Below are positions 58,996 to 61,307 of a stretch of DNA of 64,000 nt, piece after piece. The position numbers and the translations under genes are program-made. This stretch comes from Nitrospirota bacterium (GTDB lineage: Bacteria > Nitrospirota > Thermodesulfovibrionia > Thermodesulfovibrionales > Dissulfurispiraceae): contig SCQE01000041.1 of the NCBI GenBank assembly GCA_004321915.1, positions 101,191-165,190 on the forward strand, read 5' to 3'. The stretch's first letter is position 1. Every line of letters starts with the position of its first letter. Under the pieces are notes generated by a model that saw only the letters and a program-made list of their open reading frames with translations, was not told the DNA's origin and did not search any database.

Positions 58996-59067
58996 GCGGG
59001 CGTAACTCAGTGGTAGAGTGTCAGCTTCCCAAGCTGAAGGTCGCGGGTTCGAATCCCGTCGCCCGCT
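58996..59067 (+). tRNA. tRNA-Gly, anticodon CCC
   Basis: Cloverleaf folded by hand: acceptor GCGGGCG/CGCCCGC, D arm ACTC/GAGT, anticodon arm TCAGC-TTCCCAA-GCTGA, and T arm GCGGG-TTCGAAT-CCCGT. CCA is not encoded. Confidence 0.9.
59033..59067 (+). repeat. left copy of a 35-nt direct repeat (3-prime part of tRNA-Gly); putative attL
   Basis: GCTGAAGGTCGCGGGTTCGAATCCCGTCGCCCGCT is identical to 61273-61307. Confidence 0.85.
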
Positions 59068-59172
59068 TTCTTGAAAACCAACCCTAAAAGGCATTTACAC
59101 AAAAAAATTTAGACCTTCACATTTGTTTTTCCGTTTATACGATCATTTCTATTTTTTGAATTTAACGTTTGA

Positions 59173-59243
59173 GGTAACCGGCCGCCGGAGCGCGAAGCGC
59201 GGAGGGAACCCGCAAGCGCAGCTTGCGGGCGGTCCGGTTGACC
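59173..59243. other. GC-rich segment with nested hairpins (possible structured RNA or protein-binding site)
   Basis: Perfect 9-bp hairpin CCCGCAAGC-GCA-GCTTGCGGG (59209-59229). GCGC-GAA-GCGC hairpin (59190-59200). Outer pairing AACCGG (59176-59181) with CCGGTT (59234-59239). Confidence 0.35.
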
Positions 59244-59283
59244 GAAGGGTTAGGCGGCGGGGTGATGTGCGTTTTCAACAAAA

Positions 59284-60015
59284 TTACTCACTGTGTAATG
59301 CTATGAATATGTCAGAGCCGGCCTGCGGAGTTTCGACATTTATGCCAGCTATGGCACCCTCGACTGAATCCTCCAACTTCGCGACAAACGGCCTCATAAG
59401 TTCCCACACATCGGATATGCATACTCGGTATTCGCCTGCAGCTAAGTGAACCAACGATGTCGGTCTTACCACTGCTTGGCCAACCGGGTTTACAAGCTCC
59501 ATCTTCTTGAAGGGATACATGGTGCCGGGGCGAAGGACACAGGTTAGATGTTGAAAGGAAATGTCGTCAACAAACGTGATCCATGTGAGAACCCCAAGAG
59601 CGGTTGACTCCTTTGCGACTACGTAATCGATCCGTTGGGCTAGATGGTCAGCTACATTTCGCAGTTGTCGGACTTCCTGAGATAGCTTGATGAAGCTTTC
59701 CACCCTCTCGTCACTCATGAATTCATCAGCGACGTTTGGCATTTGCTGTATGAGAGTGCGTACTCGATCTGTTGCATCGACGAATGCCCAGGCGTCGAGG
59801 AATGCGGAAGTGTAGTGTCTAGCAAAGTGTGCCTTGGTGTTGCCGTCCGCATTCCCTGTGATGTGACCTCTAGCCATTTCTGTCAGGGCCGTGACAAGGC
59901 GGTTATAGGCTAGGTCCGCTATTTCAACCGCATGCCGTATGCCGTCGATGAATACCACTTGACGTCGATTGCGCAAAGCGGGGAGGCGTCGCAGTATGGA
60001 ATTCTCCGATATCAC
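59284..60015 (-). CDS. orphan 243-aa protein with an RNxxxH (HEPN-like) motif
   Basis: Clean ORF with no family recognised. The helical N-terminal half contains VRQLRNVADHLAQRI, which matches the HEPN Rx4-6H signature. Confidence 0.4.
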   Translation of the reverse strand: MISENSILRRLPALRNRRQVVFIDGIRHAVEIADLAYNRLVTALTEMARGHITGNADGNTKAHFARHYTSAFLDAWAFVDATDRVRTLIQQMPNVADEFMSDERVESFIKLSQEVRQLRNVADHLAQRIDYVVAKESTALGVLTWITFVDDISFQHLTCVLRPGTMYPFKKMELVNPVGQAVVRPTSLVHLAAGEYRVCISDVWELMRPFVAKLEDSVEGAIAGINVETPQAGSDIFIALHSE

Positions 60016-60344
60016 AGTGGCTCCTTTGGGGGCGATTGAGCCGCCTAACTACTTATTAGATAGTTTCTCGCTATCACCGGAATATTTCATATTCACAATC
60101 TTCCATAAATATTGCCATCCGCATAACTGCTTGATTTGCTGTGTTATCAAGTCTGTCTAATATTACTTTTGTGATGTTATCGAGTTTTCTGTCTAACAAC
60201 GCTTCCCCTAAGCAGTTTTGTTATACCCTGTCAGAGGTCTCCCCGTCAATAGGCAAGCTGAACTGAAAAGATGTTGATTCCAGCTCATAACCCCGCTGTA
60301 TTTTGATATACTAAAAATAACGAAATAGGGATTGAGGTGATAGC

Positions 60345-60500
60345 ATGGAATCGGCGGCATCGAAAGAATTGCAGGATATTTTTTCGGTATTACCCCAAAA
60401 GGCAAAGGTCGAAGCTATAGACTATGTTATTGCCGTTGATCTAAATATGCCCGTGCTGACAATATTTCCAGGTCGAATAGCAGACCATTTAAATCGATAA
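60345..60500 (+). CDS. 51-aa ORF with a strong ribosome-binding site; possible relic of a small antitoxin-like gene
   Basis: GAGGTGA lies 4 nt before the ATG. KELQDIFSVLPQKAKVEAIDYV resembles the N-terminus of DUF2281-type antitoxins. Its 3-prime part overlaps the PIN gene in antisense. Confidence 0.25.
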   Translation: MESAASKELQDIFSVLPQKAKVEAIDYVIAVDLNMPVLTIFPGRIADHLNR

Positions 60501-60813
60501 GATCATTATCGCCTGTTATCAGAAGCCCTGCTTTTGCTTCAAGACAGCATTCAAGAACCATATTGTCTTTAGGATCACGACAAACTATTAAATTTCTGCG
60601 CGGGAATACAATCTTAGCCTTAGACACAACAGCAGCAATGCCTGTAATTAATGCCTCTAACTGAATATGAGTGATTTTGCCTTTTGCCACAAGCTCTAAA
60701 GGGACATTGCGATATTCGCTTAGAAGGGTTGGAGAAACATAAATATCTGCTTCTGTAAAAGCTTTTTTGACGGCCTTTGCCGGGATACCACCAAAAGCAA
60801 AAGCAGAAATCAA
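60427..60813 (-). CDS. PIN-domain toxin (VapC-like); the annotated TTG start truncates the conserved N-terminus
   Basis: ISAFAFGGIP...LITGDNDL is a PIN-family pattern. The in-frame sequence just upstream encodes KIVLDTGIL, which carries the catalytic Asp but has no ATG, GTG or TTG before it. Confidence 0.65.
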   Translation of the reverse strand: MISAFAFGGIPAKAVKKAFTEADIYVSPTLLSEYRNVPLELVAKGKITHIQLEALITGIAAVVSKAKIVFPRRNLIVCRDPKDNMVLECCLEAKAGLLITGDNDLIDLNGLLFDLEILSARAYLDQRQ

Positions 60814-60835
60814 AATACCTGTATCAAGAACTATT

Positions 60836-61033
60836 TTATCTCTTTTTCTCGTAAGCCTTTCTCCTTACAGCTTTTACTGCATTGTCAACATCCTTCATGG
60901 TTAATTTTGTGGTTTTGAATGCCTCCTTTGCCACCTTAAAAGCTGCATCAAGCCGCTCTTCAGGAGAAAGGACCGAAAGGATATAATCTTCAGGGTTAAT
61001 TTTTTTTGCAGTGGCAACGCTCATATAAAACAC
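60836..61033 (-). CDS. small antitoxin-like protein upstream of the PIN gene
   Basis: 65 aa with a basic C-terminus. Position is typical for the antitoxin of a type II pair. GAGGAGGTG lies upstream of the ATG. Confidence 0.5.
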   Translation of the reverse strand: MFYMSVATAKKINPEDYILSVLSPEERLDAAFKVAKEAFKTTKLTMKDVDNAVKAVRRKAYEKKR

Positions 61034-61272
61034 CTCCTCAATTTTTTTCTCTCAATCACAAATCAAGACCTGTTACATATCATTGTATCACATTCAGTAA
61101 GCGATGAAGCTTGCATATTTAGAATAATCGCCTCATTGTTTATTTCAATTCGACTGTAGCAAATTTTGTAGCAGAAAATTGCAGAACATATCGAATCACC
61201 AATTTCCTGTTAAATAAGTATGTTACTGATACTCAACTAAAAAGCCAACTCGTTCTGAAGCGCTTCCAAATT

Positions 61273-61307
61273 GCTGAAGGTCGCGGGTTCGAATCCCGTC
61301 GCCCGCT
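61273..61307 (+). repeat. right copy of the 35-nt tRNA-Gly 3-prime repeat; putative attR
   Basis: Identical to 59033-59067. No matching 5-prime tRNA half lies upstream. Confidence 0.85.

Follow-up and report, generated by a model that had tools for sequence, protein, structure and literature searches.

A probable relic of a tRNA-Gly(CCC) island carrying an isolated integron cassette in an uncultured member of Nitrospirota

The 64-kb stretch of DNA analyzed here (referred to below as the window) comes from the metagenome-assembled genome (MAG) of an uncultured Nitrospirota bacterium and contains a single tRNA gene recognized by ARAGORN, that for tRNA-Gly(CCC). A repeat search shows that the last 35 nt of this gene, which begin with the anticodon stem's 3' strand and end with the discriminator T, recur without a mismatch (35/35) approximately 2.2 kb downstream, and that the identity collapses directly past the discriminator. 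The DNA bracketed by the two copies consists of a short AT-rich piece, an integron-type gene cassette with an open reading frame for a 243-aa protein (ORF243) and a canonical attC recombination site, and a longer AT-rich part with a PIN-domain toxin gene and a small antitoxin-like open reading frame (ORF), as well as a few further short ORFs (Table 1). This segment probably represents a decayed tRNA-associated island, similar to the cis-mobilizable elements (CIMEs), that has additionally received a single integron cassette.

Table 1. Features of the tRNA-Gly(CCC) locus, with positions counted within the window
Feature	Position	Strand	Description and evidence
tRNA-Gly(CCC)	58996-59067	+	Intact gene, attL side of the island; ARAGORN; Rfam RF00005, 74.7 bits; identical to tRNA-Gly(CCC) of relative L098
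attL copy of the 35-nt direct repeat	59033-59067	+	Anticodon stem (3' strand) through discriminator; repeat search
Left AT-rich backbone piece	59068-59165		~28% GC, ends at the cassette junction; composition, junction reconstruction
Integron-type gene cassette	59166-60048	-	883 bp, 54% GC, G/TT on both sides; attC model match, R'' complement, GC steps, homologues as cassettes
attC site	59160-59255	-	Covariance model, 49.3 bits, E=1.7e-10
attC R''	59255-59249	-	GCCTAAC, then spacer CCTTC
attC L''	59243-59236	-	GGTCAACC, extrahelical C
attC variable stem-loops	59235-59180	-	56 nt
attC L'	59179-59173	-	GGTTACC, then spacer TCAAAC
attC R'	59166-59160	-	GTTAAAT
Cassette ORF (ORF243)	59284-60015	-	TAN44345.1/EPN22_07625, 243 aa, GTG start, Shine-Dalgarno AAAGGAG; conserved family, 174 homologues
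5' cassette junction	60040-60049	-	G/TTAGGCGGC; R' half belonging to the cassette, complement of R''; complementarity, GC step
Weak attC-like relic	60191-60226	-	36 nt, GTATAAC...GTTAGAC (other strand GTCTAAC...GTTATAC); 14.8 bits, E=0.027 in 7 kb, filters off
51-aa ORF	60345-60500	+	Strong Shine-Dalgarno (GAGGTGA); convergent with the PIN gene, whose 3' end it overlaps; no family match
PIN-domain toxin gene (VapC-like)	60427 to ~60843 (frame to 60860)	-	PIN_3, TIGR00305
Small antitoxin-like ORF	60836-61033	-	62-65 aa, stop overlaps the PIN frame; probable ATG at 61024 behind GGAGGTG
attR copy of the 35-nt direct repeat	61273-61307	+	No tRNA 5' half; preceded by an imperfect anticodon-loop-like GCTTCCAAATT (61262-61272); repeat search

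The repeat and the lack of a tRNA 5' half in front of its second copy had both been claimed in the original prediction, and both claims hold. When as many as 3 mismatches are allowed, a 28-nt pattern of the core occurs at these two sites only in the window, with 0 occurrences expected from shuffled sequences. Upstream of the second copy, the 45-nt flank does not align significantly with the 5' half of the tRNA (local alignment, p=0.14), the alignment spanning only GCTTCC(C/A)AA of the anticodon loop, and neither ARAGORN nor Rfam calls a second tRNA at this place. Given this unrelated flank and the absence of a tRNA call, the second copy is not a degraded full-length tRNA duplicate, which had been put forward as the observation that would speak against an island. 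Within the island, Rfam recognizes nothing beyond the tRNA itself and a sub-threshold match to a tmRNA end that falls on the repeat. The locus has the layout of a tRNA-integrated island, with an intact tRNA gene at one end and a direct repeat of its 3' part at the other, and the repeat pair is best read as the attL and attR sites of a site-specific integration into the 3' part of the tRNA gene. The same reading had been offered before, and it is supported by the exact repeat, by an att site of the same kind in a viral contig (see below), and by the low GC content of the island backbone. The status of the segment as an island rests on these three lines of evidence, namely, repeat, composition, and the viral precedent.

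An integrase gene, which is among the usual marks of a tRNA island, is missing from the bracketed segment. Pfam searches detect no recombinase among any of the island ORFs, a six-frame screen of the entire window for the tyrosine-recombinase motif is empty, and tblastn searches of the window with phage integrase and IntI1 queries give no match below E=0.2. The earlier observation that the ~2.2-kb segment encodes no recombinase is thus confirmed by three different approaches. Its heterogeneous composition is also real, although the proposed division into a GC-rich left and an AT-rich right part is not: there are three blocks rather than two, with GC contents of 27.6% (positions 59068 to 59172), 53.6% (59173 to 60049), and 37.9% (60050 to 61272), compared to 47% for the whole window and 47 to 48% for the flanks of the island. 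This contrast is explained by an integron cassette that sits in an AT-rich island backbone, which, after subtraction of the cassette, comprises 1,322 bp with 37% GC.

The same att core is used by an element that does carry an integrase. A search of IMG/VR with the exact 35-mer returned one viral contig, IMGVR_UViG_3300025013_000122 (labelled L084/L101), which contains a segment that opens with the anticodon stem's 5' strand and reaches the 3' end of the tRNA, together with ~13 nt of downstream flank, and lacks the tRNA 5' half. This segment lies 30 nt from the stop codon of a gene coding for a 377-aa tyrosine recombinase (Xer/integrase models, E ~1e-27). The core and flank of the viral contig show full identity with the tRNA-Gly(CCC) locus of L098, a Nitrospirota relative whose IlvD protein is 95% identical to that of the window; therefore, tyrosine integrases acting on this stretch of the tRNA exist in the virome of the lineage. 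As in tRNA-targeting temperate phages and islands, of which this contig is an example, the window has the same 35-nt core and a partial tRNA devoid of its 5' half. The viral contig shares ~60 nt with the L098 tRNA locus and has its integrase gene abutting the core. The window has neither integrase nor phage genes, and its backbone is unrelated to the viral contig.

The GC-rich block contains the second recombination signature. Sites of the attC type have a canonical layout, R'' (RYYYAAC), spacer, and L'', followed by L', spacer, and R' (GTTRRRY), that forms an imperfect palindrome with an extrahelical base. A covariance model of such sites (model R1), with R and L pairings, was based on the attC sites of six class 1 integron plasmid cassettes [aac(6')-29a, blaVIM-2, arr-3, aacA4, aadB, and aadA2] and one site from a metagenomic array (L095), with the window sequence left out. 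The sole match of this model in the window, found with cmsearch, is a full-length site on the minus strand with a score of 49.3 bits, and all the boxes can be read in it directly. The site belongs to the sequence type GCCTAAC...GGTCAACCGGACC; its L'' and L' boxes pair 7/7 around one extrahelical C, and its bottom strand has a computed folding energy of -26.4 kcal/mol (z=-3.3). It was aligned with the attC sites of aacA4, aadA2, L187, and L095. The R'' box with its spacer (GCCTAACCCTTC) and the right spacer with the start of R' (TCAAACGTTA) are identical to those of the attC in the aacA4 [aac(6')-Ib] cassette, and the two sites also agree in box spacing and in the extrahelical C of L''. The central variable region of the window site is longer (56 nt, two hairpins) and unrelated to that of aacA4, and the ORF of the cassette is unrelated to resistance genes. 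The sequence GTTACCT was considered as a candidate R' box and rejected, as it belongs to L' and the true R', GTTAAAT, is found 13 nt further on. Scanning with a hand-made pattern of attC boxes does not discriminate, giving 2 matches versus 7.5 expected in Markov-shuffled sequence.

Both junctions of the cassette can be reconstructed. On the minus strand, it starts with TTAGGCGGC... (position 60048) and ends with ...TCAAACG (position 59166). In a linearized cassette, the first bases (here, TTAGGC...) are expected to be the other half of its own R' box. Indeed, the sequence GTTAGGCGGC, located 34 nt upstream of the GTG codon of the ORF on the minus strand, is complementary at all 10 nt to the R'' region GCCGCCTAAC (positions 59249 to 59258), and no further exact occurrence exists in the window. 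The ORF is co-oriented with the attC site and lies directly 5' of it, its stop codon being 28 nt before R'', and the 5' end of the cassette fits the TTRRRY pattern complementary to R''. The steps in GC content, from 27.6% to 53.6% and then to 38.7%, fall at the two G/TT junctions. The structured GC-rich segment noted in the original prediction is therefore real as a segment but is a canonical integron attC and not part of a single cargo unit; together with the orphan gene with an RNxxxH motif, it makes up an 883-bp cassette that belongs to a separate recombination system. Reconstruction of the circular cassette gives the junction TCAAACG/TTAGGCGGC. In silico removal of the cassette joins GAATTTAA to CTACTTATTAG, an AT-rich sequence with GTT on the cassette strand, and does not restore any ORF. 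The empty attB site can be reconstructed as well, with the 3' end of the tRNA joined to CTTAAGACAACGAC and the tRNA joined directly to CTTAAGACAAC....

[quoted passage not shown] The GTT at the junction fits this consensus. A complete integron would include intI and attI, and a CALIN would have at least two clustered attC sites; the window has one significant attC and no IntI-like ORF, and the cassette is for these reasons assigned to the SALIN class. It resembles the attG-inserted cassettes in having one ORF followed by one canonical attC with no intI or attI nearby, in the G/TT sequence matching 5'-GWT-3' at both junctions, and in the complementarity of its 5' end to R''. It differs from them in its host, an uncultured Nitrospirota MAG, and in its position inside the probable remnant of a tRNA island.

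The cassette ORF belongs to a widespread family with 174 detectable members of 235 to 270 aa, all of them unannotated and without Pfam domains, which are encoded in Gamma- and Deltaproteobacteria, Nitrospirota, and many metagenomes. The residues that are invariant in their alignment include D23-G24-x-R26-H27 (DGxRH) and R118-N119-x-x-D122-H123 (RNxxDH). Searches of Pfam, NCBIfam, and PADLOC gave no significant family match for ORF243. Its AlphaFold (AF2) model has a pLDDT of 90.4 and a pTM of 0.89 and no Foldseek neighbor at E<=0.001 in PDB or BFVD. The product of this ORF had been labelled a putative nuclease, a label that amounts to a guess: the motif RNVADH resembles the Rx4-6H motif of HEPN RNases, but there is no match to a HEPN profile or to any other family in the above searches.

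Homologues of ORF243 are found as cassettes in attC arrays elsewhere, as seen for two of the family members. The closest one, P0002 (~50% identity), is encoded between two attC sites of the same type as in the window (L187, 4708-4779 and 5544-5610) in a one-directional array of small genes; sites in this array conform to GCCTAAC-CnnTC-nGTCAACCGGACC...GGTyACn-TyrAAC-GTT. The gene for P0003, also with ~50% identity, immediately follows a 61.8-bit attC site (L095, 3914-3988) in a comparable array. These one-directional arrays include toxin-antitoxin (TA) genes. The homologue in Methylobacter sp. G7 is bracketed by GTTAGGC and by GCCTAAC-7 nt-GTTAGAT, which looks like a collapsed attC. Some homologues are solitary chromosomal genes, and no attC was seen near the family members in Solimonas and L089. 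The gene was not found in viral contigs, and the only plasmid match, with 30% identity, comes from a Gemmatirosa megaplasmid.

The surroundings of these homologues are diverse. The contig L187 (GCA_030157145.1, JASDBE010011436.1, positions 1 to 9118) is a one-directional array of ~14 small genes, including those for a hydrolase, HpcH, PNPOx, PIN_8/12, pentapeptide, and nucleotidyltransferase proteins and others, with at least three attC sites of the window type; no integrase is encoded in this 9-kb contig. In the Methylobacter sp. G7 locus (L082, CP159583.1), attC matches of 33.4 and 23.4 bits are found at positions 96-185 and 618-680, behind small minus-strand ORFs and ~9 kb from the ORF243 homologue (9970-10780); these sites appear to be fossil cassettes in the chromosome of this methanotroph. 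In the JGI metagenome contigs L089 to L094, the ORF243 homologue overlaps the stop codon of an upstream gene for a 240-aa protein, which suggests an operon, and the pair is located between the genes for a KAP-family NTPase and an OLD-like TOPRIM/AAA_21 ATPase, a neighborhood resembling a defense island. Many metagenomic contigs that code for an identical homologue, P0059 (L189 to L192; 23 contigs read), end 55 to 85 nt past the gene. Such breaks would be expected if the gene were followed by a repeated element such as attC, and no attC is detectable in the short remainder.

The AT-rich part of the island to the right of the cassette contains the PIN toxin pair recognized in the original prediction. 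The PIN domain is complete (Pfam PIN_3, E=1.2e-13, profile positions 1 to 114 of 115; TIGR00305, E=1.2e-18), and the gene follows a small overlapping ORF, as in VapBC type II TA modules. Unlike in typical modules, the toxin frame contains no ATG, GTG, or TTG codon between the preceding stop and the catalytic Asp (VLDTG), the first canonical start, TTG at position 60813, would remove the N terminus with the active site, and the match of the small ORF to an antitoxin family is weak (VapB15, E=0.006). The PIN gene may thus be a pseudogene that has lost its start, or it may be translated from a rare start codon. The 51-aa ORF on the opposite strand may be the remnant of a truncated gene. The startless PIN gene, the weak antitoxin, and the truncated-looking 51-aa ORF all fit a decaying remnant. 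No relatives of the PIN protein were found in viral contigs. A 14-nt inverted repeat (60070-60083 and 60331-60344) ends just before the 51-aa ORF.

[quoted passage not shown] The island agrees with this definition in having intact direct repeats at the tRNA 3' end and in lacking genes for an integrase, an excisionase, or transfer, nor were any remnants of conjugation or relaxase genes seen in it. The window island differs from the described CIMEs in the much smaller size of its backbone (1.3 kb) and in having no accreted partner element, and it may descend from a prophage or another island rather than from an ICE or IME.

The features of the locus suggest the following history. An integrative element encoding a tyrosine integrase, with an attP site that imitated the stretch of the tRNA running from anticodon arm through discriminator, would have recombined with the tRNA-Gly(CCC) gene, producing an intact tRNA gene (attL) and an orphan 35-nt copy of its 3' part (attR). 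Later deletions would have removed the integrase gene and nearly all of the cargo, leaving a CIME-like relic of ~1.3 kb of AT-rich DNA (37% GC) with a decaying VapBC-like pair. Such a relic could be mobile only with a cognate integrase supplied in trans or after integration of a new element next to it. Independently, an integron integrase encoded outside the window would have inserted the circular 883-bp cassette at a GTT in this AT-rich DNA by attC x attG recombination, yielding a SALIN, so that two unrelated site-specific recombination events would be superimposed at the same locus. The cassette is co-oriented with the TA operon, which would make read-through transcription possible. Which of these events came first, that deletions took place, where the integron integrase came from, and whether the segment moves or is expressed today are matters of inference. 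Three IMG/VR contigs (L104, L106, and L171) code for proteins that are 46 to 57% identical to IntI1 over nearly its full length, which suggests integron integrases on phage-like or misclassified contigs.

The genomic neighborhood was compared with those of close relatives. In genomes whose IlvD proteins are 95 to 96% identical to that of the window, the DNA is 81 to 85% identical up to the end of ilvD and divergent beyond it. In L098 and L099, an identical tRNA-Gly(CCC) gene is located ~2.9 kb past ilvD without a second 3' copy; it lies between genes for a PAS kinase and a radical-SAM protein, unlike in the window. In L100, the tRNA is absent from the stretch examined. The space between ilvD and the tRNA is occupied in the window by a gene for an MFS transporter (57626-58912, minus strand), whose best relatives in species-representative genomes are from Bacteroidota, with at most 56% identity; that scan returned only Bacteroidota loci and no relatives of the source genome. 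In the nearest Nitrospirota relatives, the place of the MFS gene is taken by a gene for a PAS/HisKA kinase in L098 and for a WD40/caspase protein in L100. Just 3' of attR lies a gene for a DUF4143/AAA_14 ATPase (61385-62560, plus strand) that matches the PADLOC candidate defense family PDC-S01 (E=2.4e-63). Three Nitrospirota relatives encode DUF4143 proteins with 83 to 86% identity, often among TA genes, and in each of the three the gene is found at a different locus. Because of these differing contexts, it looks like a variable or mobile gene rather than a stable chromosomal flank, and its use as a synteny anchor was rejected. A 243-aa gene near DUF4143 in L087 proved to be unrelated to ORF243. 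An exact look-up of ccoS returned one short contig only, which breaks inside DUF4143. A contig with an identical ccoS, likely of the same organism, derives from SRR8426592. The whole stretch beyond ilvD is a variable region.

Several observations weigh against a decayed island with an inserted cassette. The empty site, in which tRNA-Gly would be followed by the DUF4143 ATPase gene and ccoS, was not found among the relatives examined, because synteny with them breaks after ilvD. The arm next to attR is only marginally similar to the attP arm of the viral contig (p=0.03), and no similarity between the island backbone and this contig was found otherwise; with nothing else in common, the contig shows the tRNA site in use and not the origin of the island. 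No integron integrase and no second significant attC are present in the window, which covers 64 kb of the 182-kb contig. Finally, the upstream edge of the cassette could be the last 7 to 10 nt of a deleted neighboring attC rather than a secondary-site junction, and a weak attC-like sequence lies 145 nt beyond this edge. The last point belongs to an alternative in which the region is a decayed CALIN, the remnant of a chromosomal integron array beside the tRNA-Gly gene, with the TA pair and ORF243 as successive cassettes whose upstream attC sites have been eroded. TA modules are common as cassettes of chromosomal integrons, the TA operon and ORF243 are co-oriented, the homologues of ORF243 are found in one-directional arrays with TA genes, and the sequence between the TA operon and ORF243 that scores weakly as attC on both strands (13 to 15 bits) may be a collapsed attC relic, or else a chance match. 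Nevertheless, only one attC is significant even with the filters off, the TA region has 38 to 39% GC versus 54% in the cassette with the step falling exactly at the G/TT junction, and the 35-nt tRNA repeat would be left unexplained, calling for a separate integration event. A CALIN at this locus is therefore unlikely. In this alternative, the 5' GTTAGGC would be the last piece of a previous attC; neither L' nor a spacer precedes it, so that there is no full attC on that side, although a neighboring site may have been deleted there.

The two remaining alternatives concern the repeat pair. The segment might be an active miniature non-autonomous element whose routine excision and integration would be carried out in trans by an integrase of an infecting phage or of another part of the genome, and this was one of two options in the original prediction, the other being a decayed island. 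Both att copies are indeed intact over 35 nt, integrases that use exactly this core exist, and a TA pair could stabilize such an element. Still, neither for the backbone nor for the PIN gene did another copy or a relative turn up in the viral collection or at any locus examined, the PIN gene lacks a start codon and what the segment contains resembles debris more than a streamlined element, and there is no integrase within 64 kb. Mobilization in trans, for which no positive evidence was found, is accordingly improbable, and the decayed island is the better of the two options. Alternatively, the second 35-nt copy might have resulted from partial duplication of the tRNA by illegitimate recombination, or mark a rearrangement breakpoint, with no site-specific recombinase involved; the gene order around the tRNA differs among close relatives, as in a rearrangement-prone region. 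This explanation appears highly improbable, given that the copy runs precisely from the anticodon arm to the discriminator, the very segment found at the att site of the viral contig beside an integrase gene, that its upstream flank has no relation to the 5' half of the tRNA, and that the enclosed DNA is compositionally foreign. A bolder proposal goes beyond the decayed island with its SALIN: the ORF243 family might found a new family of single-gene toxins or anti-phage defense proteins, with the att-flanked relic as a trans-mobilizable carrier that couples cassettes to the mobility of tRNA islands. It is prompted by the confident fold without structural neighbors, the invariant DGxRH and RNxxDH motifs, and the recurrence of the family in integron arrays and beside KAP-NTPase, OLD-TOPRIM, and PIN genes, and it is doubtful.

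Both components of the locus, the CIME-like relic and the SALIN, belong to previously described classes, and their combination is a tidy example rather than a new kind of system. Its value lies in providing a clean natural case of an isolated cassette for which the two junctions as well as the sequence before insertion can be reconstructed, in the genome of an uncultured member of Nitrospirota. To our knowledge, no integron activity has been reported in this phylum. The locus lends support to the recent proposal of a scattering of cassettes over genomes by integron integrases. It also draws attention to a widespread, unannotated family of cassette-borne proteins without structural relatives, which is a candidate for functional testing.

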